Under the pieces are notes generated by a model, which was not told the DNA's origin, ran no database searches, and was given only the letters and a program-made list of their open reading frames with translations. This document shows positions 1,303 to 31,963 of a DNA stretch of 64,000 nucleotides, one piece after another. The DNA is taken from assembly GCA_017935675.1 (NCBI GenBank), contig JAGBHE010000026.1:17436-81435 (forward strand). The letters are read 5' to 3'. Both the position numbers and the translations under genes were made by a program. Numbering within the stretch: the stretch's first letter is position 1; every line of letters begins with the position of its first letter. Origin of the DNA: Clostridia bacterium. GTDB lineage: Bacteria > Bacillota > Clostridia > UBA1381.

Positions 1303-1323
1303 CGATGAAAGGAAGAGTGTTTT

Positions 1324-4235: not shown

Positions 4236-4284
4236 TGCGGCGGCAGACTGACGGAGGCTGCTTTAAAAAGATAAGGAGGAGCAT

Positions 4285-7563: not shown

Positions 7564-7582
7564 AAAAAGGGAAGGAAATTAT

Positions 7583-8431: not shown

Positions 8432-8471
8432 CATGACAGAATATCATAATTTAAGCTTAGGAAGTGATTGA

Positions 8472-9779
8472 ATGGATGCAATAAAATACGAGAAAGAAAT
8501 AAAGGTTCTTTTTGATACAGAAGTATGTGTGGTTGGCGGAGGACCGGCAGGCATAGCCGCGGCCGTAACTGCGGCAAGATGCGGCGCAAGGGTTTGTCTG
8601 TTTGAAAAAGAACAGTGCTTCGGCGGCGCAGCAACCAATGCTAAGGTCCCTGCATTTATGCGGTTTTCCGATGGGGTAAATTTTCTTGCAGGGGGTATCG
8701 GAAGAGAGGTATTTGACCGATTATACGGCGATGAGGATTTTACCAAAATTGAATTTTCCATAGATTGCGAAAAATTAAAATATATTTATGATAATTTGGT
8801 TTGGGAATCCGGTGTCGAATTTTTGTTTGAAACTAATTTGCTGGATGTCATATCGGAAAACGGAGTGATAAGGTACGCTGTTTTCAAGGGTAAGGAAAGA
8901 ATATTTGCCGTAAAAGCGAAAAACTTTATTGATGCAACAGGGGACGGATTTCTTGCCGTATCCGCAGGCGCAAAATATACAGTCGGAGACGGAAAAGGGC
9001 ATATGATGCCGGCTACGTTATGCAGCGTTTGGGGTGATATTGACTGGAATAAGGCTGTGGTTGAGCTGGGAAAGGACCCGGACAACAGATGTTTAAAACA
9101 AGCATTTGAGGACGGAGTATTTACTGTGCAGGATCCCGGCTTGCCCGGAATGTGGAGATTAGACCGGCATTACGGCGGCGGAAATATAGGGCATATATTC
9201 AATGTTGACGGAACAGATGAGAAATCCATCACAGACGCCATGATACAAATGCGCAGAAGGATAAGAGAATATGAATACTATTATACGCATTATCTGGACG
9301 GATATGAAAATGCAAGGCTTCTGTTTACAGCGGACGTTTTGGGAATAAGAGAAACAAGAAGAATTGAATGCGAATATATGGCTCGGAAGGATGATTATAT
9401 AAATCATTCTGTGTTTAAAGACGAAATCGGAAGATATTCATATCCGATAGATATACATTCCTATGCAATCGGTGCGGACGAGGGCCTTGGAGATATATAT
9501 GCAAAGGGTTATGCAAAGGGCAGAAGCTACGGAATATCATACCGCTCTTTACTTCCTGTGGGGCTTAAAAATACTCTTGTAGCAGGAAGATGCGTAGGCG
9601 CTGAGCGGGAAATGTTAGGGTCGATGAGGGTTATGCCCTGCTGCTTTATTACCGGAATGGCGGCAGGCGCCGCATCAGCGCTTGCAGTGCGTCAGGCGGA
9701 GGATATAAGAAGCATAAGTATAGAAAATCTTCAGGATAAGCTTATTGAATTGGGAGCATACCTTCCGTTTAGCCGATAG
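8472..9779 (+). CDS. FAD-dependent oxidoreductase (PUL-associated family), cytoplasmic
   Basis: N-terminal Rossmann dinucleotide motif VCVVGGGPAGIAAAVTAARCGARVCLFEKEQCFGG. 435 aa, no signal peptide. Confidence 0.75.
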   Translation: MDAIKYEKEIKVLFDTEVCVVGGGPAGIAAAVTAARCGARVCLFEKEQCFGGAATNAKVPAFMRFSDGVNFLAGGIGREVFDRLYGDEDFTKIEFSIDCEKLKYIYDNLVWESGVEFLFETNLLDVISENGVIRYAVFKGKERIFAVKAKNFIDATGDGFLAVSAGAKYTVGDGKGHMMPATLCSVWGDIDWNKAVVELGKDPDNRCLKQAFEDGVFTVQDPGLPGMWRLDRHYGGGNIGHIFNVDGTDEKSITDAMIQMRRRIREYEYYYTHYLDGYENARLLFTADVLGIRETRRIECEYMARKDDYINHSVFKDEIGRYSYPIDIHSYAIGADEGLGDIYAKGYAKGRSYGISYRSLLPVGLKNTLVAGRCVGAEREMLGSMRVMPCCFITGMAAGAASALAVRQAEDIRSISIENLQDKLIELGAYLPFSR

Positions 9780-9782
9780 TTT

Positions 9783-9839
9783 AAACAACCATCTTTATTT
9801 GAACTGTATGTGTTTGAATAAAGATGGTTGTTTTTGTTT
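9783..9839 (+). terminator. Rho-independent terminator of locus 0
   Basis: Stem aaacaaccatctttatt / aataaagatggttgttt followed by TTTTGTTT, 4 nt after the stop codon. Confidence 0.85.
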
Positions 9840-9841
9840 AT

Positions 9842-9869
9842 GAACACAAGGGGACGGTTCTCTTGTGTT
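9842..9869 (+). repeat. Palindromic hairpin element (REP-like), copy 1
   Basis: gaacacaaggggacggttctcttgtgtt. It folds into a 12-bp stem (two G-T wobbles on this strand) with a 3-nt loop. The same 28-mer recurs at 31388, and in reverse orientation at 31935, 57996 and 58451. Confidence 0.9.
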
Positions 9870-9998
9870 ACAAATCTTCTCTCAAAGTGAATGCAATCGC
9901 AAAATACACTGTTACGGTTTTTGAAAAAAAAGAAAAAAATGGTAAAGATAGTGATATAATGTTAAGCGACGAAACAAAACCGTACCGAAGGTAATAAT

Positions 9999-10274
9999 AT
10001 GGTTCACTTAGATTATAACACTAAAAAGGTGAACACCTAAATTACGAAAATAAAAACTGAAACTTTAAGTAAATTAGGTTTAAAATCAGAAGCTATAGCA
10101 AAGCAAATGGGTTGCTCGGGCAGAACAGTTCGTCGAGAATTGGCAAGAGGAAAAACAGAGATGTTAAACACAGATTATACAACAAGAATTGAATATAGTG
10201 CTGACATATGCCAGAAAAAACATGATTATAATGCAACAGCAAAAGGTCCGGCATTAAAAATTGCAAATGACTGA
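9999..10274 (+). mobile_element. Decayed N-terminal fragment of an IS30-family transposase (pseudogene)
   Basis: Translation of 10041-10274 gives ..IKTETLSKLGLKSEAIAKQMGCSGRTVRRELARGKTEMLNTDYTTRIEYSADICQKKHDYNATAKGPALKIAND*. This matches the HTH plus linker of Firmicutes IS30 transposases. Upstream, the ..EHLNYE.. piece is in another frame, so there is a frameshift. The catalytic DDE part is absent. Confidence 0.65.
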
Positions 10275-10298
10275 ACAAATTTTGTAAACTTTTTATGC

Positions 10299-10328
10299 TT
10301 GACAAAGAATCAGCCGATATGCTATAAT
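10299..10328 (+). promoter_or_regulatory. Candidate sigma-A promoter of locus A
   Basis: TTGACA (10299-10304), an 18-nt spacer, then TGcTATAAT (extended -10, TATAAT at 10323-10328). It lies about 130 nt upstream of the SBP gene. Confidence 0.55.
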
Positions 10329-10455
10329 AATGTAAATTTGCCGTTTTAAAAAAGTGGTTTTTTGTCTTATTTGTGATTTTATTTGATAATGAGTTCGTGA
10401 AGCGTTATTTCGGGCGGATATAACATATACATGAGTTTGGGAAGGATGACAATAT

Positions 10456-11931
10456 ATGAAATACAGAGTAAAACAGATAGTTATAGTTTGTATTGTGATG
10501 ATATTTTGTTCTGCTTGCTTTAACAGAAATGAAAAGCTGTCGAAGATTACGCTGAAATACGCTTGCAACATGAATTACAATGATGAAACACCGTTTGTGA
10601 AGGAGCTTGAAAAAAAGACCGGCATTAATTTGGAATTTGTAAATATATTTTACGATAATATTGATGAGAAAATGCAGCTTCTGTATTTAACGGATAGTCT
10701 TCCGGATATTATAGAAAATACATGGTCGCAAGTTGACGGCGGAGCTGTAGGAGCATACCGCAGAGGATATATTATGCGTCTTGATGACCTGATAGAGAAA
10801 TACTCTCCGAATTTGCGTGAGTATCTTGCTGCGCACCCACAGGTAGAGAAGAATGTACGGCTTGATGATGGTTATTATGTATATCCGTTTATTCGCGGGG
10901 ATGAAAGACTTAACGTATACAATGGCTTGTGTATACGCACAGACTGGCTGCAGCAGAGCGGGCTTTCTGTTCCTGAAACATTGGATGAGTGGCATAATGT
11001 TTTGCAGACCTTTAAAAGAAAATATAATTGTAAAACTCCGATAGCATTAAAGGCCGGAAGTTCGGATTTTGTATATGCATACGGAATTATCAATAACTTT
11101 TACATAAATAACGGCGAGGTATTCTATGGATATATGCAGCCGGAATACAAGGAATATCTGCAGATGATGAACCAATGGTATAATGAGGGACTTCTTGGTG
11201 AGAACTACCCCAATGAGGTTTATGATGTTGCTTATAGGATGTTTGAGGATGAAGCTTGCGGCGCTTTAGCTACAACTGCCGGTTATGGTATAGGAAGTAT
11301 ACTGAAGCTGGGAATTAATGTTGAAGGAGCGCCTGTGCCTGTAAAGAATAAAGGTCAAAGACCTTTTGCAGGTCAGTATGATTCGGAAATGGTAAATGTG
11401 GGAGCGGTAGCTATTTCAAGCGGATGTAAAAATCCGGAGGCCGCGGCACGTTTTCTGGATTATGGATATGGCGAGGAGGGGATGCTTCTCTATAATTTCG
11501 GTGTATATGGTGAAAGCTATATTATGTCTGATGAAGGGCCGCGTTACACTGATAAAATTATGAAAAGCCGTAATATCGGTGATGAAATGAGTAAATATCT
11601 TAGAGGATTGACCTCAGGACCATTTGTTCAGATGTGGGAATACATGGATCAATATACCTCACAGCCGGAGCAAAAAAGAGCGCTTGAACGCTGGATGCAA
11701 ACAGATGCGGCGGAGCATACCTTACCTGAATTAACCTTTACACAAGAGGAAAACGAAATTCTTTCGATGTTATCATTTAATGAATATGCAAAAGAGATGG
11801 AGCTTAATTTTATTTTAGGAATTACAGATTTTTCAGAATTTGACAATTATTTGGCAGAGTTATCAAAGAGAGGCGCGGATAAGGCACTGGAGATATATCG
11901 GCTTGCATATAAACGATATTGCAGCAGGTAG
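10456..11931 (+). CDS. ABC-type extracellular solute-binding lipoprotein, adjacent to a regulator and with no permease next to it
   Basis: 491 aa. Signal peptide with lipobox MIFCSACF, and family-1 large sugar SBP features. Paralogous to the SBPs at 1324, 27443 and 37075. Confidence 0.78.
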   Translation: MKYRVKQIVIVCIVMIFCSACFNRNEKLSKITLKYACNMNYNDETPFVKELEKKTGINLEFVNIFYDNIDEKMQLLYLTDSLPDIIENTWSQVDGGAVGAYRRGYIMRLDDLIEKYSPNLREYLAAHPQVEKNVRLDDGYYVYPFIRGDERLNVYNGLCIRTDWLQQSGLSVPETLDEWHNVLQTFKRKYNCKTPIALKAGSSDFVYAYGIINNFYINNGEVFYGYMQPEYKEYLQMMNQWYNEGLLGENYPNEVYDVAYRMFEDEACGALATTAGYGIGSILKLGINVEGAPVPVKNKGQRPFAGQYDSEMVNVGAVAISSGCKNPEAAARFLDYGYGEEGMLLYNFGVYGESYIMSDEGPRYTDKIMKSRNIGDEMSKYLRGLTSGPFVQMWEYMDQYTSQPEQKRALERWMQTDAAEHTLPELTFTQEENEILSMLSFNEYAKEMELNFILGITDFSEFDNYLAELSKRGADKALEIYRLAYKRYCSR

Positions 11932-11940
11932 GAGGACTAA

Positions 11941-14220
11941 TTGAGAAAAATGAAACTATTGAGAAAAATATCTCAGAAAAGTATTCTGACAACGTGGTTG
12001 TTATCATATCTGCTAGTTCTGTTTCTGCCAATATTAATGGGAGTGATTTTACTTTTTCAGTCGGTATATGCATCGCACAAGCAGCTTATGTATTATAATA
12101 ATTCAATATCCGCAGCATTAATTTCAGAAAATGACAGAAGCGTAGTGGAGCAGATGCAGGCTGTCACTATGGCTTCGGCAGATGATGAGATTCAGGCATC
12201 AGTTCATATGGAAACACCGATTTCCCCTGAAGAACAAAAGATTTTGTATTCTCTGAAGGAAAAAATGAGTAATTACAATATGAAGTTTTTCGCCGGGACA
12301 AACAATCAGAAATGTTTTATTGTTCTGAAAGGAATTAACCGAGTGGTAGATTCCAAATTTGTAAGCGAAACGGAGCAGTATTACCGTAAAAATTATGATG
12401 AGGAAGGAAAGGATTTTGAGGCATGGCTATCTGCTGTTTTTGATAATAAGTCGGGATATTTTCTGAAAACATTGCCGGACGGTGCTGTCAAGATTTGCTA
12501 TGTAGCATCATTTCCTGATGCTGCTTCGGTGAGAGGGGCTTTTGTCATTGAAAGAGAACTGCCTGATTTGAATAAAATAATATCGGAGCGTGTAAATAAT
12601 ACTTTACTGACGGAATGCGCTGCATTTGCCGGAAACGGAGATATGATTTTTTCAACGCACAAATTGTCAGATTTGTCTGCAGAAGAATTAACGGCGCTGG
12701 CAGAACGTGATGATGAACATGTACGTATTGATGGTCAGAAGTATTATTTGTGTACGCAGACCTCTGATGAAACAGGTCTTAAATATATGGTGGCAGTTTC
12801 GGATCTTACATGGAATAAAATGATTTTTAGTATTCGTATGTTCGGGATACTTATGCTTCTTGTATCTGTAATCGGCGGACTTGTTTTCATCTTTTTTGTG
12901 GTGCGATATAATTATGCACCTATTAAAAGTATTATGGAAAATGTGCATGGGCGAATACCGATGAATGGGAAGCAGAGTCAAAATGAGCTGGAAATCATTC
13001 AGGATGCTCTTTCAAATATAATAAATGAATATATTACTGTAAGCAAGCGTGCAGATACTCAAGCAGAAAAATTGAAAAAGCATGTTATCTGCGATGTCCT
13101 GCTCGGAGAACTGAAAACAAATGACCTAAAAGAATTGGATGTTGACTTTCGAGGAAAAAAGTTTGCAGTGGCATTGTTTGAATTTGAGGATTACGAAAGA
13201 CTTTTTGAGGGTGAAGACGATATCAGTGAGGCTGAAAAATTCAGCACCATACTTTTCGTACTGGAAAATATTGTTCGAGATGTTTTTAAAAACGGATCAA
13301 GAGGATATGTTACACGAATTGACAGCAGAGTGGCGTTGCTGCTGACACTTGACAACTATGAAAAATCGCAAAAAAAGATACGGCTGTTTGATACACTTCT
13401 GGATGTTAAGCACTTTATGGAAGAAAATATGTATATACGCTGTACAATATCGCTCAGCAGCATAGTAAGCACAGTTGATGAAATTGAAATAGCATACAGA
13501 GAAGCGTGCGAGGCACTTCAATATAAGCTTTCATTGGGAACAGAGATTATTATAACCCAGGAAGGTATTACAGTAACGGATAAAAGACGGTATGTGTATT
13601 CGCTGGAAAAGGAGCAAAAGCTTATAAATTATATAAAAACTTCAGATTCTGAAAAGGCTGTTGAGTTGATAGAAGAAATCTTTAAAGAAGGTGATTTATC
13701 GCTGGATATGCTTAAATGTCTTGCATACGGTATGGTTGGTACTATTTTCCGTATTACAGACAGTGAAGGAGATGAAGAATTCGAAGAACTTTCCCGAAAG
13801 CTGCTTGGGTTTGAAACAATTATGGAGCTTAAGGAAATGCTGATCTCTGAAACACAAAAAATGTGTGAACGTTATCAACCCAAGAAGGGGGATTTTCTTT
13901 GTGCAAGAGTGAAGAAGGTTGTAGAGGAGCAATACAGTAACCCTGATTTGTCTGTGGGATATATAGCAGAAATTTTAGGGGTACAGTATGCGTATTTGTC
14001 TGCCGCATTTAAAAGTTACGCCGGTGAGGGAGTTTTGGAGTATATCAGCCGTTTCAGAATTGATAGGAGCAAGGAACTGTTGAAGGACCCGCTTATGTCT
14101 GTTGATAATGTTGCTAAAAAAGTGGGATATACAACAAGCAAGACTTTTATACGAGTATTTAAAAAGCTGGAGGGTGTTACTCCGGCAAGCTACAGAAAGC
14201 ATGCCGTAAGTGAGCAGTAA
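11941..14220 (+). CDS. Membrane-spanning AraC-family one-component transcriptional regulator
   Basis: Two predicted TM helices (about aa 16-39 and 294-321) flank an extracytoplasmic region of about 250 aa. The C-terminal AraC HTH reads YIAEILGVQYAYLSAAFKSY...VGYTTSKTFIRVFKKLEGVTPASYRK. Start is TTG 11941 (5 nt after GGAGGA) or ATG 11950. Confidence 0.8.
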   Translation: MRKMKLLRKISQKSILTTWLLSYLLVLFLPILMGVILLFQSVYASHKQLMYYNNSISAALISENDRSVVEQMQAVTMASADDEIQASVHMETPISPEEQKILYSLKEKMSNYNMKFFAGTNNQKCFIVLKGINRVVDSKFVSETEQYYRKNYDEEGKDFEAWLSAVFDNKSGYFLKTLPDGAVKICYVASFPDAASVRGAFVIERELPDLNKIISERVNNTLLTECAAFAGNGDMIFSTHKLSDLSAEELTALAERDDEHVRIDGQKYYLCTQTSDETGLKYMVAVSDLTWNKMIFSIRMFGILMLLVSVIGGLVFIFFVVRYNYAPIKSIMENVHGRIPMNGKQSQNELEIIQDALSNIINEYITVSKRADTQAEKLKKHVICDVLLGELKTNDLKELDVDFRGKKFAVALFEFEDYERLFEGEDDISEAEKFSTILFVLENIVRDVFKNGSRGYVTRIDSRVALLLTLDNYEKSQKKIRLFDTLLDVKHFMEENMYIRCTISLSSIVSTVDEIEIAYREACEALQYKLSLGTEIIITQEGITVTDKRRYVYSLEKEQKLINYIKTSDSEKAVELIEEIFKEGDLSLDMLKCLAYGMVGTIFRITDSEGDEEFEELSRKLLGFETIMELKEMLISETQKMCERYQPKKGDFLCARVKKVVEEQYSNPDLSVGYIAEILGVQYAYLSAAFKSYAGEGVLEYISRFRIDRSKELLKDPLMSVDNVAKKVGYTTSKTFIRVFKKLEGVTPASYRKHAVSEQ

Positions 14221-14244
14221 ATATTCAGTCAGATTATTAAAAAC

Positions 14245-14293
14245 AAAAAACGTTATTTGTCGGAGCTGACGCTCCCGACAATAACGTTTTTTT
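14245..14293 (+). terminator. Rho-independent terminator after the AraC regulator gene
   Basis: Stem aaaaaacgttatttgtcggagc / gctcccgacaataacgttttttt, with an A-run before it and a T-run after it. Confidence 0.8.
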
Positions 14294-14483
14294 ATCGTAA
14301 AAGCACAGATTAACCTGCAGTAAAGCCTGAAATAAAGGCATTTATTAAAAATTGGGCTATAAACAAATAATTTTGTACCTTGATGAGGACGTGAAAATAA
14401 AGTATAATTATTATAAAAATTATTATAGCAATACGTATGCCGCAGAAACGGCAATGACAGCATTTCAATCAGGAGGTTTAAGC

Positions 14484-17400
14484 ATGAAAATAAATGTAAA
14501 CAGACTTTTGGCATGGACGCTGAGTATATGTTTTATGTTGTCTCAGAATTGTCTTGCCGAAGAGGGAACAGCTTCTTTGACAGCGGAAATTTTGGAGAAA
14601 GAAGATGTTTTGTCGGATGTTATTGAGGGGGATATTCCAGTAATTGATTTAGAACCAAGCCCTTCGGCTTCTGACGTGGCGCCGTCGGAAAACGCGGAAC
14701 CTATATCTGATGAAATTAGCATCAGCATGGCAGATAATGTAATGACTGCTCCTATTGTTACTCTTTCAGAGCAGGAAGCAGTTGAGGCAGACCTTGCGGC
14801 GATTACCGAGGAAAGTATTCTTTCAGTGCCGCTTACCGATGAAGGATATTTGATTGATCCGCTGGAAATTGACCAAATTACAAGCGGAGCAAACGGAAGT
14901 ACAATAACGTGGACTACATCGGATAGTGAAATCATATCAAATGACGGTATGGTAACACGTCCGGCAGAGAATACGTCCGTTGCTGTAACGGCAACTGCAA
15001 AGCTGGGGACAACAGAAGCTTCAAAGACATTTGAGTTTTGCGTTGCAGGTCAGTCAACGAACATAGCAAATATGCATGCTGACATATTCCCGATGTACTT
15101 TGATGATTTTTCCAATACAGAAAAGATAGACAGCAGAATAAAGACCTCGCGTTTTGTTTCGGGAGATACCATGACAGTGGAGAATGGTAAGCTGAAATTC
15201 AATAGAACCCAATGGAGTTCTTCAGAGGCAACAATGGCCTTTTATATGGATGAAGCAGAAAACACGATGAACGGAACATTCATTGCGCAGTATACTCTCA
15301 AAAAGCATACGGGTGTAGTACGAATGAGAATGTATAATGCGAACTGGAACTATATAACTCAGACAGCGTGGGAGGGCAACACGCTGACAATTCAGTACAG
15401 AGATCCGTCAGACTTGTCTAAGAGAAGAACCATATCGATAAACGCACCCACAAATCAGGCACTTAAATTTACTTATCTTTTAAATGTTAATGACTCACGA
15501 CCAACCTTTAGTATGTGGATTAATAACCGCGCTGTACTGACAGATGTTGTTTCTGCTACGGATTTCAGCCCTGCTGCACTTAAGTGGATTCAGTTTTACA
15601 ATATGCAGTACGAAAATTACAATGTCGGTTACTATACGGTTGATAACTTCGGAATTTACAAACTTCTCCCTGAAATGACAGATGAGGAAAGAGTAAAGGC
15701 TGATATAAATGCAATTACATATTCATCACTGATTAAAGGGACAACACCGCTTGACGGAACAGCATATTCTGACTTGGACCTCTCGCCGTATGGTAATAAC
15801 GGAAGTCGTATCATATGGAGCTCGTCAAATGAGGATTATATAAAGACTAACGGAACGGTTATACGCCCAACGGATACAAATGAGGAGGTTACCCTGAAGG
15901 CAAAGGTTATTTCGGGAGCGTACTCAATGGAAAAGGAAATAGTCATAAAAGTGCTGGGAGAACACATTGTGCTTGATGATTTACCGGAGCCGTATGATGG
16001 GTATATCATAAACAATACCTTTGACAGCCCGGATATGGAAAACAAACTTGTTACAAATACTGCCGGCGGAGGAACTGTTGAAATCAAGGACGGGGCACTT
16101 GTTATAAATAAAACAGATTCGGGTTCTGCACAGGTAGGCGCTTCAATTTATCATGGAGCGAGTGACAAAGATGCGGTAACAGGTATCATCGGCATTGAAT
16201 TCGATGTAGAAAACCCAAGCGGCAAAACGGTGCAGATACGAAGTATGGATCCAAACGGACATTTGTATTACAGTATGAGCGGAACTCCCACTAGTATGAG
16301 CGCAAATTATTCTAATGATCCGAATAAGGGGGGAAGCTTCGTATCATTCCCGGTAAACGGTGGAGACATTACACATTTTAATATGATGTTTGATACAGCC
16401 AACAGTTCTTATTGGCTGTGGGTGAACGGTGAGCTTAAGGTTTCAAGAAAGTATTCGCGTGATGTAGGAACGACATCATTAGGCTATACGATGTTTTATA
16501 TAGAAAATGTGAATACTATAAAGATAGACAATTACAAAGTTTATAACGCTCTTATGCCTCATGCATTGCGTCTTGGGTTTGATATAACAGATTTTTCGGA
16601 GGATATACTCTATAGCGAACCTCCGTCAGCCAAAGGTGTTATCAAGTCAAATCTCAATTTGCCGAAGCAGCTTAAATACTACACAAATATTACATGGTCA
16701 AGCAGCAATCCGGAAATAATTAATCCGCATACAGGTGCAGTAACAAGACCGGTTGATACCGATTCCAATCCTATTGTGATATTAACAGCACATCTGGAAA
16801 ACAGCGGAATGGAGGAGGAAAGGCAATTTACATTCCGTGTACTGCGTAATTTTTCAGATTCCGGAAAAATTATGCAGGAGGAAGTAAATACTCTTACATA
16901 TGCAGATATTACAGAGCAGAATCCGGCGGAAATAAAAACCTCTCTCAATCTTTCCGAAAAAGGCTTTTATGGAAATGCAATAACATGGTCTACTGATAAT
17001 TCAGATGTAATTACAAGCAGCGGACAGGTAATAAGACCGAGGTTTGATGAAGAAGATGCAAAGGTTACTCTTACTGCGACTGTTGGAGGAAAATACTCAA
17101 AGGATTTTGAGTTTATTGTAAAAGCAGATGATGCTCCCGTTGACCCTATGTATACTTCCGATGAGGATTTCTTCGGGATATGGAACGGAGGCTCATTTGT
17201 AAAGACTCCACAGCTTGATTACTCATATGAAGGTCTTGAGAAAGTGGAGGAATGTGCAAAGAGAGGAGATTACAGAGGAGCAAAAAATGAACTGTTATCC
17301 TACTTCCGAACAAGGAATATACCTTCGCCGTTGGCTTTAGGAACACGTAAAAACGGTTGGGTTGATGCGCGTGCCGATGGAATATTTGAGTTGTCGGAAG

Positions 17401-20612: not shown

Positions 20613-20651
20613 ACAGAGTTAATATAATATAATTTTAAGGAGGATTTTTTT

Positions 20652-22844: not shown

Positions 22845-22972
22845 TAAAAAGCATGGTATTTAATTAAGCAGTATGCCTGAAAACAAAGCATAGAGTTTCG
22901 GGAGGAGCAGACTCTCTCATCCTTCCGAAGCAATGCTTCGTATATAAAACGACAATAATAAGGAGATGCAAA

Positions 22973-24745
22973 ATGATAAAGGAAAGAGTGTTTGATATCA
23001 CCGGATTTTCGTTTGAAGGAAAAATAGATGAAATTTCTTTTGACGGAGTATATGTTCACCGCAGCGGCAGCGAGGCGGTTATCGGTTATAATACAAAGGC
23101 TCAGAAAGCGCGCTGCTTCTTTATGCTTTCAAAACTTTGCTCGGAGGGAAAGGAAAGCTTTGAAATAAAAGAGAGACCGGTGTTTGATTTGTGCGGTCCT
23201 ATGCTGGATTTGTCCCGCGGCGGCGTAATGAGAAAGGACGCGGTTAAACGCTATATCGACAGAACAGCCGCTCTCGGTTTTAATATGCTTATGCTGTATA
23301 CTGAGGATATATACGAGATGAAGGAATATCCCATGTTCGGTTATCTTCGCGGACGGTACAGCGAGGCTGATTTAAAGGAAATGGACGATTATGCTTTTGA
23401 AATGGGTGTTGAGCTGATACCGTGTATTCAGACTTTAGGTCATCTTGCAAATTATATAAAATGGGGCGAAGCTGCTGAATTTGCGGAAAATTCCTCGGTG
23501 CTTTTGGTTGATGAGGAAAAAACATATAAATTTATTGAAACAGAAATTAAAACTATGAGAAAATGCCTTCGTTCAAACAAAATACATATTGGTATGGATG
23601 AGGCAGTCGGACTCGGATGTGGAAAATATCTTGAAAAGCACGGAATACATAACAAACTGGATATTTTTAACAGACATCTAAAAAGGGTGCTTGATATTAC
23701 AAAAAAATATAATTATTCTCCGATGATATGGGGAGATATGTATTTTTCGGAAATAAACGGCAATTATTACTACGAACCGGACGCCGTTATTCCGGACAAG
23801 GCAATAGCGGATGCACCGGAAGAGCCTGAACTGGTATTCTGGGATTATTATCATACATATTATGATTATTACGATACAAAACTTGCGCAGTATGCGCGTT
23901 TCCCGAATACTTCGTCTTTTGCCGGCGGCGTGTGGACAATGGCTGGTTTTGCGCCTAATTTCAGATATACTTATGATTCTATGATACCTGCCCTGCAGTG
24001 CTGTGTTGACAGAGGTGTAAAAACCGTCATTGCAACAATGTGGGCGGACGGTGGCTGTGAAACAGACTTTTTTGACGCATTTGACGGTCTGGCTGTTTTT
24101 TCGGAATATTGCTATAAAGGTAAGGAATGTACGGAGGAGGATATTTATTCCGTTGCCGCACATATTACAAATTCGGGAGCAGATTTTATTGACGCTGTTG
24201 CATCCTTCCATTTTGGTCTGAAAGGTCCGGAGGGACTGGGAAAAGGACTTGTGTACTGCGACCCGATTATTAATCTTCTTTGCTATGATTTTGACTATGA
24301 CAGGGTGGCGGAGGTTTGTGAAAAAGCAATTAATACTTTTGACAAGTACCGCAGTCATCCGCGTTATACTTATTATAATTCATTATTTAATATAATTTTG
24401 AAAAAGGCTGAGCTTCTGGATAGACTGCAAAAGGAATACAAGGCAGATAATAGGGAATATTTGAACGAAACTGCTGAAAAAGCAATTCCCGAGCTGCAAA
24501 AACTCTATAAGCAGTTCTATGCTGCATTCAGTGAAAATTGGCTGGCTGTAAACAAGCCGTTTGGCTATGAAGTGTTTGCACAGCGTTTCGGCGGAATAGA
24601 GTTTAGACTTGTATATACGCAGGAGCAGCTTCGAAAATACTGTGCCGGAGAAATTGAAAGGATTGAGGAGCTTGATGAAGAAATTATTACAGGGCTTAAC
24701 AAACCATGGCGATATGCTAATAGCTATATGAACACCAACGGATGA
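22973..24745 (+). CDS. GH20-like glycoside hydrolase (putative beta-N-acetylhexosaminidase), cytoplasmic
   Basis: GFNMLMLYTEDIYEMKEYPMFGYLRGRYS, LIPCIQTLGHL and IHIGMDEA (the D-E pair position of GH20 HxGGDE). No signal peptide. Confidence 0.6.
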   Translation: MIKERVFDITGFSFEGKIDEISFDGVYVHRSGSEAVIGYNTKAQKARCFFMLSKLCSEGKESFEIKERPVFDLCGPMLDLSRGGVMRKDAVKRYIDRTAALGFNMLMLYTEDIYEMKEYPMFGYLRGRYSEADLKEMDDYAFEMGVELIPCIQTLGHLANYIKWGEAAEFAENSSVLLVDEEKTYKFIETEIKTMRKCLRSNKIHIGMDEAVGLGCGKYLEKHGIHNKLDIFNRHLKRVLDITKKYNYSPMIWGDMYFSEINGNYYYEPDAVIPDKAIADAPEEPELVFWDYYHTYYDYYDTKLAQYARFPNTSSFAGGVWTMAGFAPNFRYTYDSMIPALQCCVDRGVKTVIATMWADGGCETDFFDAFDGLAVFSEYCYKGKECTEEDIYSVAAHITNSGADFIDAVASFHFGLKGPEGLGKGLVYCDPIINLLCYDFDYDRVAEVCEKAINTFDKYRSHPRYTYYNSLFNIILKKAELLDRLQKEYKADNREYLNETAEKAIPELQKLYKQFYAAFSENWLAVNKPFGYEVFAQRFGGIEFRLVYTQEQLRKYCAGEIERIEELDEEIITGLNKPWRYANSYMNTNG

Positions 24746-24782
24746 TTTTTTTGCACAGTATTGCTTGAAAGGAGTTAATATA

Positions 24783-27413
24783 ATGAAAAGATTTTTAAGC
24801 ATAGCCTTGTGTATCTGTTTCATATTATCTGCCGTACCGGCAGCACTGGCACAGACAGATTATACAGAAGAGATTACGAGGGTTTGCAGTCTCGGTATCA
24901 TGGGTAACGTGGAGGATGGAGACTTTAGAGCAGATGATAAAATTACAAGAGCGGAATTTACGGCTGTAATATGCAGAATGTTTTCCTATGACAATATAGG
25001 AGGACAGGACACTGTATTTACAGATGTTCCTTCTTCGCACTGGGCAAGCGGATTTATTTCCTTTGCACATAATATAGGATGGATTAACGGTGTCGGAAAC
25101 GGACTTTTTCTGCCTGAAGCAGAAATTACTTATGGCGAGGCAGTAAAAATATTGGTATGCGTGCTGAACTATGACTTCGGACCGGGTGAGATAACATTTC
25201 CCGGAGGATATATAAGCATTGCGGGTTCAATAGGAATACGTAAGAATGCCGTAGACAGCTCGGAGGCAATTACAAGAGCTCAGACAGCAGGGATTATTGA
25301 CAACGCACTGGATATATATCCTATGGAGTGGAATAGCGACGGAGACCTGGTAAAGAGTGACAAAACACTCTTTGAAACCATATCAGACCGAAAGGAACTT
25401 GGTCATTACAGCGGAATTCTTACTTCAACGGGTAATTACAGCATTATCAATAAAAAAAGTGTAGACAGGGCTGTTACTGTAGATGATATACAGTTTTATA
25501 CAGATAAGAATTATGATGAATATCTTGGACAATATGTAGATGCTTATTATAATACGGATAGTTATGAAATTGTTGAAATAAGTCCTGTGCAAAGGCGGAA
25601 TATTGTTGTTGAAATTCCGGCAGAGGATACAGAGGTACATACAACCGGTATTGACTATTATGGTGGTGGTCCACGAAAAAAGACTATAAAAATCAATTCG
25701 GAAACAATTTTCCTTCTTAACGGCGATATAGTGCAGCCATCAGAGATTGGCTCGGTATATCACGGAAAGTTCAAGGCAGTTGAGAATAATCGTGACAGCA
25801 TTTATGATGTTATTTTGATTACAAAAGCTGAAAGCTTTATCGTAGAAAGCGTATCAGCAGAAAATATGGCTGTTTATTTTAAGGACGAAAAGACATATCA
25901 TGGACGAAAGGGTTTTGTTTTTAAGTTTGACGATGCGGACAAAACATATAATATCACTGATAAGAACGGCGAAAGTCGGGAATTTTCGGATATTGAGCCG
26001 GGATGCAGTATTTCGTTTGTGGGAAACAGCGATGAAAGCGTTGTAACCGCATATGTAAATAATGAAAAATGTTCGGGAAAAATTGAGGGTATCAGTCCGA
26101 GCGAAGGCGAAGTGGTAATTAACGGTAAAACTTATCAGATGGGTAAGGATGCAGACGGAAATGATACATTTAATCCTTCTAACATAATTGAGGGTGAATT
26201 TGTTATTGATGCATTTGGGTACATTATAGGAGCATGGGAAAAACAAAATACCAAATTTGCCTACGCGTATGTTGAAAATGCGTATATAGACGAATCGGGA
26301 ACAGAGATGATCATAAGACTGGTTAAGGGAACAGAGCCGGTCGAAGAAGTGAAAACTATTAATAATAACAGGATTGTGTCATATTATCTGCAAAATTCAG
26401 CCATAGAAACATTCAAGCTTGCAGATAAAGTGATTTACGGCAATAATCCAATAAACGCAAAGGGAAGCAAGATTTCATCTGCCGTACTTGATCCGGCAGG
26501 GCTTAAGAACAGTATTGTAGGCTATACATTGGACAATGACGGAAAAATTAACAAGCTCAATGTTTATAGCGTACCGACTAATCTTCCGAGTTATGAATTT
26601 AATGCAGATATTTTCTCTTTCGGCGGAATGCGTGTAAGCAGAGGCTTTATAAAGGATGAGCATACAATGATGGTCTGCGTACCGAATGCAGTGCGTTCAA
26701 GAGAGGATTATAATGTTAATGTCAAGATAACGGATGACAGCTCATATTCGGTATACGGAATTTTGGGAGTAAGTGAAAACGAGTATGGAAGTGCAAAAGC
26801 AAATGCAGAACCCTGCGATATAATTATTCTCAAGTCAGACATGGACTCTACGCTTCCTTCAAATATATCATCAGACAGCGATATATGTATAGTAGGAAAA
26901 TCTGTTATTTCCTTAAATGAGGACAATGAACTCAGATATGAGTTAGATATATTGAACGGCAGTGCAAAGAAAACCTATTATGCACCCGAAGGCAGCGTTG
27001 CATATGCAGACGCCGCTAAACTGAGAAAGGGCGACTTAATTCAATTTACCGCAAATTCAAAGAACGAATTTACCGGTATAAAAAAGAGAGCGTCAGTTCA
27101 GGGCTTGAAGGAGTATACCGGTATTGACAATGTTTACGGTGAGGTTACGGAGGTAACATATAACACATATGATTATTTCAGCAATGAAATGGTAGATATG
27201 CTCAGCGTGAACACCGGTGACGGTGTAACGGATATAAGAATCTACAAGGATGACGGACAGAAGGTTTATCTTTATGACAGAAAGTCGGGATATATATATC
27301 CGTCATCAACAGCGGATTTGTTATCTTCAGACTATTTCGGAGATGAGGCAAGCAAGGTGTTTGCTCTTATGCAGGATGGTGATGCAGAAGCCATTGTTGT
27401 TATATGGGATTAA
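24783..27413 (+). CDS. 876-aa secreted protein with N-terminal SLH repeats and a long uncharacterised C-terminal region
   Basis: RBS AAGGAG then ATG 24783; signal peptide MKRFLSIALCICFILSAVPAALA. SLH repeats ..GDFRADDKITRAEFTAVICRMF and FTDVPSSHWASGFISFAHNIGWINGVGNGLFLPEAEITYGEAVKIL. Collinear distant paralogue of 44176-46854. Confidence 0.75.
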   Translation: MKRFLSIALCICFILSAVPAALAQTDYTEEITRVCSLGIMGNVEDGDFRADDKITRAEFTAVICRMFSYDNIGGQDTVFTDVPSSHWASGFISFAHNIGWINGVGNGLFLPEAEITYGEAVKILVCVLNYDFGPGEITFPGGYISIAGSIGIRKNAVDSSEAITRAQTAGIIDNALDIYPMEWNSDGDLVKSDKTLFETISDRKELGHYSGILTSTGNYSIINKKSVDRAVTVDDIQFYTDKNYDEYLGQYVDAYYNTDSYEIVEISPVQRRNIVVEIPAEDTEVHTTGIDYYGGGPRKKTIKINSETIFLLNGDIVQPSEIGSVYHGKFKAVENNRDSIYDVILITKAESFIVESVSAENMAVYFKDEKTYHGRKGFVFKFDDADKTYNITDKNGESREFSDIEPGCSISFVGNSDESVVTAYVNNEKCSGKIEGISPSEGEVVINGKTYQMGKDADGNDTFNPSNIIEGEFVIDAFGYIIGAWEKQNTKFAYAYVENAYIDESGTEMIIRLVKGTEPVEEVKTINNNRIVSYYLQNSAIETFKLADKVIYGNNPINAKGSKISSAVLDPAGLKNSIVGYTLDNDGKINKLNVYSVPTNLPSYEFNADIFSFGGMRVSRGFIKDEHTMMVCVPNAVRSREDYNVNVKITDDSSYSVYGILGVSENEYGSAKANAEPCDIIILKSDMDSTLPSNISSDSDICIVGKSVISLNEDNELRYELDILNGSAKKTYYAPEGSVAYADAAKLRKGDLIQFTANSKNEFTGIKKRASVQGLKEYTGIDNVYGEVTEVTYNTYDYFSNEMVDMLSVNTGDGVTDIRIYKDDGQKVYLYDRKSGYIYPSSTADLLSSDYFGDEASKVFALMQDGDAEAIVVIWD

Positions 27414-27442
27414 AAAACAATTTGATATAAAGGAGAATGATT

Positions 27443-29032
27443 ATGAAAATAAGAAAAAGTTTAGCATTGATTATTGCATGTGCAGCGGCTGTATCAGTAG
27501 TAGGCGGCTGCTCGGGTAGCGAAAAAAATGTAGGAACAGGAGCTATCAGCAAGGTTACTACCACGGACGAATATCCAATTGAAAGCAATGAAAAAATAAC
27601 ATATTTCTGTAATATGAGTGATGTCGCTGAAAGTATGAATGAAACAGAATTCGGAAAGGCTCTGGTAGAGCAGACCGGTATACAAGTAGAATTTCAGCAC
27701 CCTACTGCCGGCAGCAGTTCCGACTCATTCAACCTGATGATTGCCAGCGGTGAATATCCCGATATAATTGAGAACAGCTGGGCAAATTTTGGTTTATCAA
27801 AGAGTATTTCAGATGGTGTTGCCATACCTCTTAACGAGGTGGTAGAAAAGGTATCGCCTAATTTTAAAAAGTTACTTGAAGAGCATTCCGAAATTAAAAG
27901 AGATATTACAACAAACGATGGGGATATAGCCATGTATCCTTTCTATAGAGGAGACGATTTGCTTTGTACATATGTTGGGGCAATGGTAAGAGAAGATATC
28001 CTTGATGAGCTTGGAATGGAGCTTCCGGAAACCATTGACGAATGGGAAGCAATGCTGCGTGCATTTAAGGGTAAGGTAGAGGTTCCGTGCTATGTTGATC
28101 TTACACCTTCAAAGATGAGAGGTGTTGATATGTTCCTCGGAGCATATAACGTAGATTCAGACCTTTATGTAGACAACGGAAAGGTGAAATTTGGTCCGTG
28201 TGAGGACGGCTTCCGTCAGTGGGTTGAAAAAATGATTGCATGGTATAATGAAGGACTTATTGAAAAAGATTTCGCAAATATAGATTCAAAGCGCGTTACC
28301 TCTCTTGTGGTAGGCGGTCAGATGGGCGCTGTAATGGGCTACTGCGGCAGTAATTTCGGTACATGGCTGCCAACATTAAAGGAAAAAAATCCGGAAGCGA
28401 AACTCGTACCGGTAAAATATCCCGTAATGAATAAAGGAGACCGTCCTCAGTTCGGACACAAAGAGCCGAGAGTTTTAGGAATTGGTGCAGTCATCAGTAC
28501 ACAATGTAAAAATCCGGAAATTGCTGCGCGTTTGCTTGATTTTGGCTATTCTGAAAAGGGACATATGCTCTATAATTTCGGAATTGAAGGCGAGTCCTAT
28601 AAAATGAAGGACAATGTTCCTACGTATACCTCGAAAATTCTAAATTCCGAAGAAGAACTTAGTCTTCCAATTTCCAAGGCACTTGAGCTGTATACAAGAG
28701 TATCAGCAAGCGCTCCGTTTGTGCAGGATAAAGGATATATTACGCAGTATTACCGCAATGAAACACAGCGTGAAGCTCTTAAAATTTGGTCAGACAATGC
28801 AGAGGAAGAGCATTATCTGCCGCTGGTGCAGTTTACAACGGAAGAAAATCAGAAGCAGTCTAAGATTATGAGCGACATACGTACATATGTTGACGAAGCA
28901 GTTTTGAAAATGATTATGGGAGTGACGCCGATATCTGAGTATGACTCATTTGTTTCTACAATAAAATCAATGGGAATAGATAAGGCTGTTGAAATTAATC
29001 AGAAGGCTTATGACAGGTATTTGTCCAAATAA
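27443..29032 (+). CDS. ABC transporter solute-binding lipoprotein (LplA-like)
   Basis: Lipobox VVGGCSGS, family-1 large sugar SBP, directly followed by two permease genes. ATG 27443 has better RBS spacing than 27437. Confidence 0.8.
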   Translation: MKIRKSLALIIACAAAVSVVGGCSGSEKNVGTGAISKVTTTDEYPIESNEKITYFCNMSDVAESMNETEFGKALVEQTGIQVEFQHPTAGSSSDSFNLMIASGEYPDIIENSWANFGLSKSISDGVAIPLNEVVEKVSPNFKKLLEEHSEIKRDITTNDGDIAMYPFYRGDDLLCTYVGAMVREDILDELGMELPETIDEWEAMLRAFKGKVEVPCYVDLTPSKMRGVDMFLGAYNVDSDLYVDNGKVKFGPCEDGFRQWVEKMIAWYNEGLIEKDFANIDSKRVTSLVVGGQMGAVMGYCGSNFGTWLPTLKEKNPEAKLVPVKYPVMNKGDRPQFGHKEPRVLGIGAVISTQCKNPEIAARLLDFGYSEKGHMLYNFGIEGESYKMKDNVPTYTSKILNSEEELSLPISKALELYTRVSASAPFVQDKGYITQYYRNETQREALKIWSDNAEEEHYLPLVQFTTEENQKQSKIMSDIRTYVDEAVLKMIMGVTPISEYDSFVSTIKSMGIDKAVEINQKAYDRYLSK

Positions 29033-29048
29033 TTGAAGAAGGTGTATT

Positions 29049-29990
29049 ATGCGTAGCAAAATTGAAAAAACACATCAACGCAGATTAAAGGAAACCATTT
29101 TCCGCGACCTTAAGCAGAATGGTTCGCTGTATATTTTGATACTGCCGGTTTTAGCATTTTATATTATATTTGCATACGGTCCGATGTACGGCGCGCTTAT
29201 AGCATTTAAGGATTTTTCTCCTGCAAAGGGAATTTTGGGAAGTAACTGGGTAGGTTTGGCGCATTTTAAAGATTTTCTGACAAGTCATTATTTTTTCAGA
29301 TTACTGAAAAATACTCTGACTATCAGTATTTCAACACTTGTTGTAACTTTTCCGTCTGCTATTATATTCGCTTTGCTTATTAACGAAATAAGAACAAAGT
29401 GGTTTGCTAAAACAGTTCAGACTATAACCTATATGCCGCATTTTATTTCTTTGGTCGTAATGTGCGGTCTGGTAACGAATTTTACCTCATCAGGCGGAAT
29501 AATAAATGATTTGGCAGCTTTATTCAGATTTGAACGAAAGACACTCCTAAATGATCCGAGGTACTTTGTGCCTATTTATGTTGTATCTGATTTGTGGCAG
29601 CATATGGGTTGGAATTCAATTATTTATCTGGCGGCACTTGCAGGTATTGATCAGGGACTGTATGAGGCGGCAAGTCTTGACGGCGCGGGCCGCTTTCGTC
29701 AGACCATATTAATTACAATACCATGTATTATGCCGACTATAATAATTATGTTTATATTAGCGGTAGGCAAAATTGTAAATGTCGGTTATGAAAAAATTAT
29801 ATTACTGTATAACCCTGTCACATATGAGAAGGCAGACGTAATTTCCAGCTTTGTTTATAGAAAAGGTCTGGAGGATATGCAGTTCAGCTATTCTACAGCT
29901 GTCGGTTTGTTTAATTCACTGGTTACGTTTATTCTGGTTACAATAACAAACTTTTTGAGCCGTAAATATCAGGGAGTGGGGTTATGGTAA
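29049..29990 (+). CDS. Sugar ABC transporter permease (LplB/MalF-like)
   Basis: 313 aa, multiple TM helices, and the EAA-loop motif EAASLDGAGRFRQTILITIPCIMP. Confidence 0.85.
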   Translation: MRSKIEKTHQRRLKETIFRDLKQNGSLYILILPVLAFYIIFAYGPMYGALIAFKDFSPAKGILGSNWVGLAHFKDFLTSHYFFRLLKNTLTISISTLVVTFPSAIIFALLINEIRTKWFAKTVQTITYMPHFISLVVMCGLVTNFTSSGGIINDLAALFRFERKTLLNDPRYFVPIYVVSDLWQHMGWNSIIYLAALAGIDQGLYEAASLDGAGRFRQTILITIPCIMPTIIIMFILAVGKIVNVGYEKIILLYNPVTYEKADVISSFVYRKGLEDMQFSYSTAVGLFNSLVTFILVTITNFLSRKYQGVGLW

Positions 29991-30026
29991 ACAGAAAAAA
30001 GTTTAAATAAATTTTCGTTCACCGTA

Positions 30027-30066
30027 TCTTTTTAATGCACATATTTATATGTGTGCATTAAAAAGA
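30027..30066 (+). promoter_or_regulatory. Strong intercistronic hairpin between the two permease genes of locus A
   Basis: tctttttaatgcacatat / atgtgtgcattaaaaaga, 18-bp arms with one mismatch and a 4-nt loop. It sits inside a 143-nt gap. Confidence 0.6.
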
Positions 30067-30133
30067 GGTGCTATTAGGAATTTATTTGAAGCTTATGTTT
30101 GTGCTTTTTGGCACAGAAAGGAATGATTATAAA

Positions 30134-31015
30134 ATGTTAGATAAACCGACATGGCAACAGCGTATATTCGGAATAGTAAATGGCAGTATAATGATTATAC
30201 TGATGATAGTTATGTTCTATCCGGTGTGGTATGTATTCTGTGCGTCATTTTCCAATGCAAATGAATTTATAGCGTATGATGGTGTGCTGCTTTTGCCGAT
30301 TAAGCCGACGATAGCTGCATATGAGGGCGCTTTCAGACACCCTCTGATTTTTGATTCATATTTGAATACGCTGTTTATAGTTATCGTGGGAACGGCGCTC
30401 AGTACCATTTTGACAGCTATTGCTGCATATTTTATGAGTAGAAAAAACGTATTTTTTAAGCGGCCCATTTCTCTTATGATAATTTTTACGATGTATTTTA
30501 ACGGAGGACTTGTTCCGCTGTATTTAATCGTAAAGAATTTGGGACTTTTAGACAGCATTGCTTCATTGATTTTGCCATCGCTGCTTTCGGTATATAATAT
30601 AGTAGTAATGCGTGCCGGATTTGATTCTCTGCCGGATAGCATTGAGGAATCGGCTAAAATTGACGGAGCCGGACATATAATTATTCTGTTCCGGATTTTG
30701 CTCCCGATTGTATTGCCTACTGTTGCCGTTATAATATTGTATTACGGAGTAAGCTACTGGAATGCATGGTTTAATGCGTCAATATTTATGAAGAGCAGAA
30801 ATAAATTTCCGCTTCAGCTTGTTCTGAGACAAATATTGCTTGAGAATGAGACGAATGAAATGTCATCAGGAATTGATACGGGAGACCAAATGGCATTAAG
30901 CGAAACAATCAAGCATGCAGTCACAATGATTGCAACTATACCTGTACTGTGCCTGTATCCGCTTTTGCAGAAATACTTTATTAAAGGTATAATGATAGGC
31001 GCTGTTAAGGGATAA
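30134..31015 (+). CDS. Sugar ABC transporter permease (LplC/MalG-like)
   Basis: 293 aa from ATG 30134. TM-rich, with EAA-loop ESAKIDGAGHIIILFRILLPIVLP. Confidence 0.85.
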   Translation: MLDKPTWQQRIFGIVNGSIMIILMIVMFYPVWYVFCASFSNANEFIAYDGVLLLPIKPTIAAYEGAFRHPLIFDSYLNTLFIVIVGTALSTILTAIAAYFMSRKNVFFKRPISLMIIFTMYFNGGLVPLYLIVKNLGLLDSIASLILPSLLSVYNIVVMRAGFDSLPDSIEESAKIDGAGHIIILFRILLPIVLPTVAVIILYYGVSYWNAWFNASIFMKSRNKFPLQLVLRQILLENETNEMSSGIDTGDQMALSETIKHAVTMIATIPVLCLYPLLQKYFIKGIMIGAVKG

Positions 31016-31092
31016 GTGCGCCCAGAAAAGGGAGGACTTCACATCGTGAGGTGTGATTTCACTTGATTGAATGAAAAAAACGGTTCATTTCT

Positions 31093-31121
31093 AACACAAT
31101 AGAACAACCATCCCCTTGTGT
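31093..31121 (-). repeat. Degenerate copy of the palindromic hairpin element, at the left edge of the right direct repeat
   Basis: aacacaatagaacaaccatccccttgtgt versus consensus aacacaagagaaccgtccccttgtgtt (one substitution in the left arm, loop altered and 2 nt longer). Confidence 0.55.
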
Positions 31122-31124
31122 AAT

Positions 31125-31325
31125 GTAGCAGGAAGATGCGTAGGTGCTGAGCGGGAAATGTTAGGGTCGATGAGGGTTATGCCCTGCTGCTTTATTACCG
31201 GAATGGCGGCAGGCGCCGCATCAGCGCTTGCAGTGCGTCAGGCGGAGGATATAAGAAGCATAAGTATAAAAAATCTTCAGGATAAGCTTATTGAATTGTG
31301 AGCATATCTTCCGTTTAGCCGATAG
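31125..31325 (+). pseudogene. Duplicated 3' fragment of the FAD-oxidoreductase gene (non-functional)
   Basis: Corresponds to codons for ..VAGRCVGAEREMLGSMRVMPCCFITGMAAGAASALAVRQAEDIRSISI(E>K)NLQDKLIEL, with a premature TGA at 31299-31301. It has no N-terminal 85% of the protein and no RBS or start context. Confidence 0.9.
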
Positions 31326-31328
31326 TTT

Positions 31329-31385
31329 AAACAACCATCTTTATTTGAACTGTATGTGTTTGAATAAAGATGGTTGTTTTTGTTT
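31329..31385 (+). terminator. Duplicate copy of the locus-0 terminator, now positioned after locus A
   Basis: Identical to 9783-9839. Confidence 0.8.
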
Positions 31386-31387
31386 AT

Positions 31388-31415
31388 GAACACAAGGGGA
31401 CGGTTCTCTTGTGTT
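31388..31415 (+). repeat. Palindromic hairpin element, copy 2
   Basis: Identical to 9842-9869. Confidence 0.9.
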
Positions 31416-31548
31416 ACAAATCATCTTTTAAAGTGAATTCCATCGCAAATTATACTGTTGCATTTACTTTGCAAATTTCCTATTACCGGATATAAGAAAT
31501 AGTTTCCTTGATATAATAATCGTCTCAGGTATATATTTATGAATATCT

Positions 31549-31934: not shown

Positions 31935-31963
31935 GAACACAAGAGAACCGTCCCCTTGTGTTC
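31935..31963 (-). repeat. Palindromic hairpin element, copy in reverse orientation
   Basis: gaacacaagagaaccgtccccttgtgttc is the exact reverse complement of the 28-mer at 9842 and 31388. Confidence 0.9.

Follow-up and report, generated by a model that had tools for sequence, protein, structure and literature searches.

The window analyzed here, a 64,000-nt stretch from a Clostridia bacterium (GTDB lineage Bacteria; Bacillota; Clostridia; UBA1381; assembly GCA_017935675.1, contig JAGBHE010000026.1, positions 17,436 to 81,435 of the forward strand), contains a polysaccharide-utilization locus (PUL), here called locus A, that is bracketed by two near-identical direct repeats. Each repeat consists of the 3' end of the neighboring flavin adenine dinucleotide (FAD)-dependent oxidoreductase gene, its terminator, and a hairpin resembling the repetitive extragenic palindromic (REP) elements of bacteria. 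The arrangement is real, and it is a fairly ordinary repeat-flanked and recombination-prone segment that is known in kind. As to its origin we favor, at roughly even confidence, an older duplication that accompanied the insertion of the cassette, after which the core of the repeat was kept alike by gene conversion and the unit stayed prone to recombination.

The two copies (9579-9876 and 31125-31422, both on the forward strand) align without gaps over 298 nt each and differ at four positions, namely site 1 (9599/31145, C/T), site 2 (9723/31269, G/A), site 3 (9753/31299, G/T) and site 4 (9761/31307, C/T). Their starts are 21,546 bp apart, and the pair is the longest direct repeat within the window. 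The left boundary is abrupt, with 8 of 48 positions matching upstream of it. At the right boundary, on the other hand, the 37 nt that follow each copy (9877-9913 and 31423-31459, forward strand) still match at 30 positions (81%, chance P~2e-10). Past this edge, the flank leading into locus A and the flank leading to an XRE-family gene (hereafter Y and Z) match at 14 of 47 positions, which is background, and nothing in them rises above the shuffled controls. The coordinates, equal lengths and mismatch positions given in the first-pass annotation, as well as the decay of similarity that it described over some 37 nt, were thus reproduced by the alignment. Identity drops in one step from 98.7% to 81% (4/298 versus 7/37 mismatches, Fisher p=2.8e-5). 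The differences within the repeat are also unevenly placed, since the 277-nt core holds a single cluster of three single-nucleotide polymorphisms (SNPs; sites 2-4, within 39 nt), with site 1 standing apart, 21 nt in from the left edge. No inverted or additional copy of the 37-nt edge motif was found elsewhere. We rejected the possibility that the edge belongs to a dispersed hairpin element, because the flanks of the five aligned copies of that hairpin are not conserved, and this argues that the 37 nt are true older homology.

Each copy contains the last 201 nt of the oxidoreductase gene, an intrinsic terminator with a 22-bp stem and a T-run (9785-9831 and 31331-31377), and a second, REP-like hairpin (9843-9869 and 31389-31415); the 105-nt stretch with both hairpins has a folding z-score of -7.6. 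The gene itself (8472-9779, forward strand) encodes a protein of 435 aa (PF12831, Pfam E=4.7e-95) and is the last gene of locus 0, upstream of locus A. The right copy lacks the first 368 codons, and a GGA>TGA change at 31299 (stop codon 31299-31301) removes the last eight codons, including a C-terminal GA(Y/F)LP motif that nearly all homologs retain. These results agree with the earlier description of a repeat built from a gene tail of about 200 nt, a terminator and a palindromic hairpin, of which the right copy is a dead gene fragment. The TGA at site 3 is the derived state in the right copy. At site 2, the Lys encoded by the right copy is the commoner residue among homologs and the Glu of the left copy is probably derived. 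Judged from such comparisons, both copies appear to have changed since they were last identical. The terminator of the right copy is the only strong one downstream of the last permease gene of locus A, and it seems that this copy, dead as a gene, supplies the terminator of the cassette.

All of the data come from short-read metagenome assemblies of an uncultured Clostridia lineage, and assemblies disagree on the phase of sites 2-4. Both facts would fit a second copy created by a mis-join or by collapsed strain variation. However, the same sequence was present at ≥99.9% identity (mostly ≥99.98%) in several other assemblies, and both copies with their unique junctions recurred in at least five independent short-read assemblies, having been recovered independently at k=31, k=55 and k=141 in several samples. 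Specifically, the junction of the repeat with the upstream spacer X (T at site 1) and that with flank Z (T at site 4) were each found in independent assemblies, and two long scaffolds (scaffold_992 and scaffold_1155) traverse both copies. Furthermore, contigs end exactly at the k-1 offsets predicted for a two-copy sequence: Logan contigs (k=31) end at 9629 (=9599+30) and 31175 (=31145+30) and start at 9847 (=9877-30), and k=55-type scaffolds end at 31200 (=31146+54). Contig ends at these offsets, together with the recurring junctions, make an assembly artefact very unlikely, and we give that explanation next to no credence.

In the origin that we favor, a 335-bp piece, comprising the 201-nt gene tail, the terminator, the REP-like hairpin and 44 nt beyond the hairpin, would have been duplicated when locus A, carrying an IS30 element on its left, was placed downstream of the oxidoreductase gene. 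One copy would have stayed on the live gene, and the other, dead as a gene, would have ended up behind the cassette, for which it now serves as terminator. The event would not be a fresh one, given the 37-nt edge at 81% identity and the position of site 1, 21 nt inside the left edge. Over the 277 nt of the core, RecA-type gene conversion would have held the copies near-identical, and the edges would escape conversion by being too near the end of homology. The insertion may have proceeded by a single-crossover or 'ends-in' homologous event, or by a REP- or IS30-associated duplication followed by a deletion. An older duplication with a re-homogenised core is the simplest reading because of the step in identity. 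The first-pass annotation spoke of a recent recombination scar; a product of recombination, rather than of chance or artefact, it does appear to be, but "recent" fits poorly with the step from 4/298 to 7/37 mismatches, which points to an older duplication with a converted core or to a more complex origin.

A sequence related to the IS30 family of insertion sequences (IS) does lie just inside the left repeat, as was first noticed from the sequence alone. This decayed remnant (9925-10274, forward strand; left limit uncertain, 9914-9955) comprises a leader and about the first 96 codons, interrupted by frameshifts, and is cut off at ~10274. Its 77-aa frame is 59% identical by tblastn to residues 21-96 of a 353-aa IS30-family transposase of Clostridium sp. 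CM028, and similarity to the leader DNA extends from about 9955, possibly from 9925. Pfam and NCBIfam searches of the remnant returned sub-threshold helix-turn-helix (HTH) hits only. An intact relative, with ends placed by means of empty sites, has 169 nt between its left end and the ATG, which indicates that the remnant has probably lost its left terminus along with its right two-thirds. The 37-nt edge of the repeat showed no similarity to the left end of this relative, which speaks against its being an IS30 terminal repeat but does not refute it. A composite transposon was rejected as an explanation for locus A, since the left side has one truncated remnant only and the right end no IS-like sequence.

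Two of the competing origins can be weighed against the same features. The first is a recent, one-step integration of the Campbell type, in which a DNA circle would have brought in locus A together with a fragment of the oxidoreductase gene and no conversion would have followed, the 81% edge being then either divergence between donor and recipient or an IS30-like terminus. This route, already proposed in the first-pass annotation, would account for the gene-tail direct repeats that flank a complete cassette, one on an intact gene and one truncated, and it is in keeping with the different contexts of the cassette in relatives, with a contig that carries the exact circle-type junction (both described below), and with a core that differs at just four positions. 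However, the non-uniform identity (rounded, p=3e-5) is unexpected from a single event between uniformly diverged partners. There is, moreover, no compositional break between locus A and the downstream locus B, no recombinase gene in the interval, no empty site among the sequences searched, and no match in plasmid or phage collections. A Campbell-type origin is possible and unproven, and we consider it somewhat unlikely.

The second is that locus A once ended in a paralogous oxidoreductase gene, of which the right copy would be a relic after truncation at a REP-like hairpin and later conversion by the live gene. Oxidoreductases of the PF12831 family are indeed regularly the last gene of lyase-type loci, including loci with surface-layer homology (SLH) proteins, and are followed there by unrelated genes; one stands beside a heparinase II/III-like gene, and locus A encodes such a lyase. 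The right copy also starts directly after a decayed hairpin. On the other hand, spacer X (31016-31124, forward strand), which contains a weak hairpin and this decayed, inverted REP-like hairpin (31093-31121), retains no homology to the body of the oxidoreductase gene (score of 22 versus a null of 18±2), and the cassette of a related species has an Imp-YgjV gene and a second lyase gene after it instead of an oxidoreductase. These observations speak against the truncation of a second oxidoreductase gene that had been suggested initially, and we leave this relic a slim chance. The closest genomes for the oxidoreductase are Ructibacterium gallinarum and an uncultured Clostridia metagenome-assembled genome (MAG), at 72-73% amino-acid identity. 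A 77-aa open reading frame (ORF) that follows the Ructibacterium gene was considered as a homolog of the XRE-family gene of flank Z and was ruled out by its sequence.

Next we turn to recombination between the copies, for which the favored origin calls. The differences at site 1 and in the 37-nt edge, those of the left edge included, keep to their own copy in every assembly, while sites 2-4 change phase. Written as site 1; sites 2-4; flank, the window carries C;GGC;Y on the left and T;ATT;Z on the right, scaffold_992 (SAMN15830109) carries C;GGC;Y and T;GGC;Z, and scaffold_5567 (SAMN15830104) carries C;ATT;Y on the left and does not cover the right copy. There are thus three phase configurations among assemblies that are ≥99.9% identical, a pattern that bubble collapsing at k=55 could mimic. 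The configuration of scaffold_5567 is the source of a 427-aa "truncated" oxidoreductase in the protein database (P0001, L010:5616-6899), which ends with the TGA of the right copy. Most likely a k=55 assembler collapsed a bubble at the repeat and so gave rise to this form, the alternative being a real conversion.

A junction expected from crossover between the copies was found in one contig. In k141_190661, from the MEGAHIT assembly ERZ28018929, window positions 17097-31422 are joined directly to 9877-15118, so that the last permease gene is followed by spacer X, a repeat with all four right-type bases, the flank of the left copy, the IS30 remnant and the first substrate-binding protein (SBP) gene. 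The junction is identical to the predicted recombinant over 986 of 986 nt, and the contig together with a gap of 1,978 nt makes up the 21,546-bp unit. In the same assembly, the contig on the locus 0 side ends at 9718 and that on the XRE side at 31304. From the behavior of MEGAHIT, these ends would be branch points at k=119, 31304 being one only if the T at site 4 joins both flanks.

Direct repeats of 277-298 nt at ≥98.7% identity exceed the minimal efficient processing segment for homologous recombination, and a homogenised core between diverged edges is the pattern of concerted evolution. The phase and junction data fit gene conversion, crossover (giving a tandem duplication or an excised circle), or both, and ongoing recombination between the copies is likely but unproven; we infer both the gene conversion and the existence of the recombinant contigs as real molecules. 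By unequal or intramolecular crossover, the 21,546-bp unit, consisting of the cassette and one repeat, could be duplicated in tandem, excised as a circle, or deleted.

It has also to be asked whether locus A exists in some populations as a separate 21.5-kb circle or a tandem amplification, so that the layout in the window is one of several coexisting forms. The contig k141_190661 presents the unit in circularly permuted form, the chromosomal-side contigs of its sample stop at the repeat, and an excess of the ATT arm would explain the ATT in the left copy of scaffold_5567. However, this is one contig, from an assembler that makes no use of read pairs. In addition, four assemblies link the oxidoreductase gene through the repeat to locus A and three link the permease gene through the repeat to the XRE gene, and the unit contains no replication or partition genes. 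We regard such coexisting forms as quite unlikely.

Several points weigh against an older duplication with continuing conversion, beginning with the short-read nature of the assemblies on which it was built. The phase switches in k=55 assemblies can be produced by bubble collapsing. The junction contig of MEGAHIT could be a chimera if the copies are identical over 277 nt and the other two edges were dropped at low coverage. The 37-nt edge may also have arisen in another way, such as from the terminus of an IS30-like element that lay at both sites. Lastly, no relative is close enough to reveal the state before insertion or the age of the duplication, the nearest oxidoreductase being 76% identical, with downstream synteny not conserved.

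It had been proposed at the outset that the repeats would allow the precise loss of locus A, and that related genomes might hold the corresponding empty site. The repeats are a plausible substrate for homologous recombination and the reciprocal junction is present in one contig, but no deletion junction was found, and no relative with an empty site was encountered in look-ups or scans. Exact look-ups of the oxidoreductase, XRE, response regulator, esterase, first SBP and last permease genes gave the integrated layout or contigs ending in the repeat only. A scan of genomes returned relatives at ≤73% identity only, none with downstream synteny. The contexts of two homologs (P0010 and P0003) were uninformative, and a scan of Joint Genome Institute (JGI) metagenomes with a 61-nt core probe returned nothing.

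The segment between the repeats is one complete PUL of the ATP-binding cassette (ABC) transporter type, in line with its earlier description as self-contained. The cassette (10252-31015, forward strand), delimited by Pfam domains, promoter and homology to relatives, encodes an SBP, an AraC-type regulator, a lyase, an aBig_2 protein, a GH20 enzyme, an SLH protein, a second SBP and two permeases. The lyase (14352-20612) is a protein of 2086 aa with aBig_2, heparinase II-III and SLH domains. The promoter (10299-10328, TTGACA-18-TATAAT) matches the consensus at 12 of 12 positions. No recombinase gene was found among the annotated ORFs covering 10456-31015, the sole mobile-element sequence being the IS30 remnant, and plasmid and phage collections held no match to 9579-31459; a plasmid or phage origin is not supported.

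Inside the lyase gene, independent assemblies of two samples, one at k=55 and one at k=141, stop at 15118 or 15127 and both start again at exactly 17097. The intervening 15119-17096 contains no tandem or long internal repeat and is probably a strain-variable segment of this surface lyase.

In related species the cassette is kept together, in other surroundings. In L035-L037, in which a permease is 79% identical, the order giant lyase, aBig_2 protein, GH20, SLH protein, SBP, permease, permease is kept. In L035, the relative's own terminator follows the second permease gene and is succeeded by the Imp-YgjV and second lyase genes mentioned above. In L040, in which the first SBP is 73% identical, a divergent GH88 gene lies upstream of the SBP gene. 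Homology to L040 and L035 starts at ~10252, where the IS30 remnant is cut off, and stops at 31015, the stop codon of the permease gene. Since the neighbors differ on both sides in these relatives, the ancestral surroundings of the cassette included neither the oxidoreductase gene and IS30 remnant on its left nor the gene tail and XRE gene on its right. To judge by gene order, locus A appears to be a relocatable module that was placed at its present site.

A further contig of this group, L036:1-2100 (SRR25571938), contains two adjacent large serine-recombinase genes (Resolvase/Recombinase/Zn_ribbon), which interrupt the locus-A-like cluster upstream of GH20 and occupy the place of the giant lyase and aBig_2 genes of L035.

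The hairpin in the repeat, AACACAAGGGGACGGTTCTCTTGTGTT, is a 27-nt imperfect palindrome with five copies in the window, all of them intergenic (9843-9869, 31389-31415, 31936-31962, 57999-58025 and 58452-58478), which have nothing in common beyond about 29 nt. It had 108 exact matches in JGI metagenome contigs, where it forms inverted doublets and alternating-orientation arrays with a 124-nt period (e.g., L093:2760-3560 and L041:180-270). A short palindrome with many intergenic copies in alternating clusters has the properties of REP sequences and bacterial interspersed mosaic elements (BIME). No Rfam family matched in the window, the hairpin thus being without a model, and no match to the hairpin was found in IMG/VR. 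No gene for a REP-associated tyrosine transposase (RAYT, TnpA_REP) is present within the 64-kb window. The hairpin may represent an undescribed REP family of gut Clostridia. The block of high identity ends 7 nt past the intact hairpin, and the decayed inverted hairpin at 31093-31121 adjoins the start of the right copy, as had been observed on first inspection; by position only, this suggests a role of the hairpin in the rearrangement. Bacterial duplications are known to have join-points at REP sequences, which some IS elements also target.

Locus 0 (130-9779) encodes an SLH protein, an SBP, a GH88 enzyme, a PL8 lyase, a BD-FAE esterase and the oxidoreductase. On the other side, flank Z (from 31460) contains the XRE-family gene (31549-31782, reverse strand, 77 aa, Pfam HTH_3 E=1e-8), the hairpin copy at 31936-31962 and then locus B (32168 to ~57870), with response regulator and histidine kinase, permeases, an SBP and large glycosidases. 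GC content is 44.3% in locus 0, 39.5% in locus A and 37.2% in locus B. The right copy, at 43%, is a fragment like locus 0 in composition between two AT-richer loci. Tetranucleotide correlation between A and B (0.974) is as high as between the halves of one locus (0.965), and is lower for 0 versus A (0.881) and 0 versus B (0.862). Given this likeness of A and B, locus A is not an island relative to locus B; the comparison does not bear out the foreign character implied by the first-pass annotation, and it is locus 0 that stands apart. We rejected an integrase-mediated genomic island as well, there being no tyrosine or serine recombinase inside locus A and no composition distinct from that of locus B.

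Three further observations concern the surroundings of locus A. A second pair of direct repeats, of ~130 nt and 93-96% identity, lies at 2839-2966 and 53943-54071, 51.1 kb apart. It is an intergenic element with three hairpins (fold z=-4.1) that begins at the stop codons of an SBP gene and an SLH-protein gene and brackets part of locus 0, locus A and locus B. Several assemblies break inside it (contig starts at 2857, 2912 and 2937), from which it is probably multicopy in the genome. In contig L003 of ERZ28018929, SNPs at 32670 and 32674 split the response regulator gene (32168-33355) into ORFs of 168 aa and 183 aa, and this contig has 3 SNPs in 3.3 kb, whereas locus A of that sample has 1 in ~16.5 kb. 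Two scaffolds from SAMN15830134 share an overlap of exactly 55 nt (8523-8577) inside the FAD-binding motif region of the oxidoreductase gene, which points to a branch in the graph at a conserved motif that occurs in further genes or strains of that sample.

Should the recombinant forms prove real, uncultured gut Clostridia would offer a natural case of a complete glycan-utilization locus whose presence or copy number is governed by a pair of gene-tail repeats. Specifically, the repeats might make the whole PUL variable in copy number in gut populations, as a tandem amplification or a 21.5-kb circle, with its dosage tuned or the locus shed without dedicated mobile-element machinery. We offer this as a tentative idea that is unlikely on present evidence. 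The permuted contig and the phase-switched SNP cluster would then be footprints of copy-number variation, and the repeats would provide a cheap route to the rapid change of dosage, or loss, of a carbohydrate-degrading capacity. Otherwise, the arrangement is an ordinary outcome of bacterial genome rearrangement. A repeat of 300 bp with a few SNPs also yields mutually inconsistent haplotype phases across assemblers, which matters for metagenome assembly and binning. The 427-aa oxidoreductase serves as an example of a repeat-induced annotation artefact, and it calls for caution when 'dead gene fragments' or truncated proteins are read from MAGs.

Non-tandem direct repeats of the sort treated, reportedly, by Anderson and Roth, by Sandegren and Andersson, and by Reams and Roth are said to be RecA-dependent substrates for duplication, amplification and deletion. 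The segment described here resembles them in that a repeat of ~300 bp flanks a 21-kb unit, a novel junction exists in one contig, and the core is homogenised while the edges are diverged. It differs in that repeats of this sort are usually IS elements, rrn operons or REP clusters, whereas here a gene tail and terminator were duplicated, and amplification itself is not demonstrated; our literature search on PUL amplification through direct repeats returned nothing specific. With Campbell integration, as of suicide plasmids and integrative vectors, it shares homology duplicated around an insert, one copy completing a gene and the other truncated. However, identity is here non-uniform, there is no donor replicon, origin or selectable function in the segment, and no circular donor is known. 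Likewise, integrase islands (attL/attR) place cargo at the 3' end of a gene, whose end is restored by direct repeats. Unlike them, locus A has no integrase or recombinase, its repeats measure ~300 bp as opposed to 15-60 bp, and it carries no compositional signal against locus B. Lastly, Shyamala and colleagues are said to have described, in 1990, REP/BIME elements and rearrangements with REP-associated join-points. The dispersed intergenic 27-nt palindrome described here, with its inverted doublets and alternating arrays and its position at both ends of the high-identity block, is of the same kind, but it belongs to a family from Clostridia that has no Rfam match and no RAYT gene in the window.

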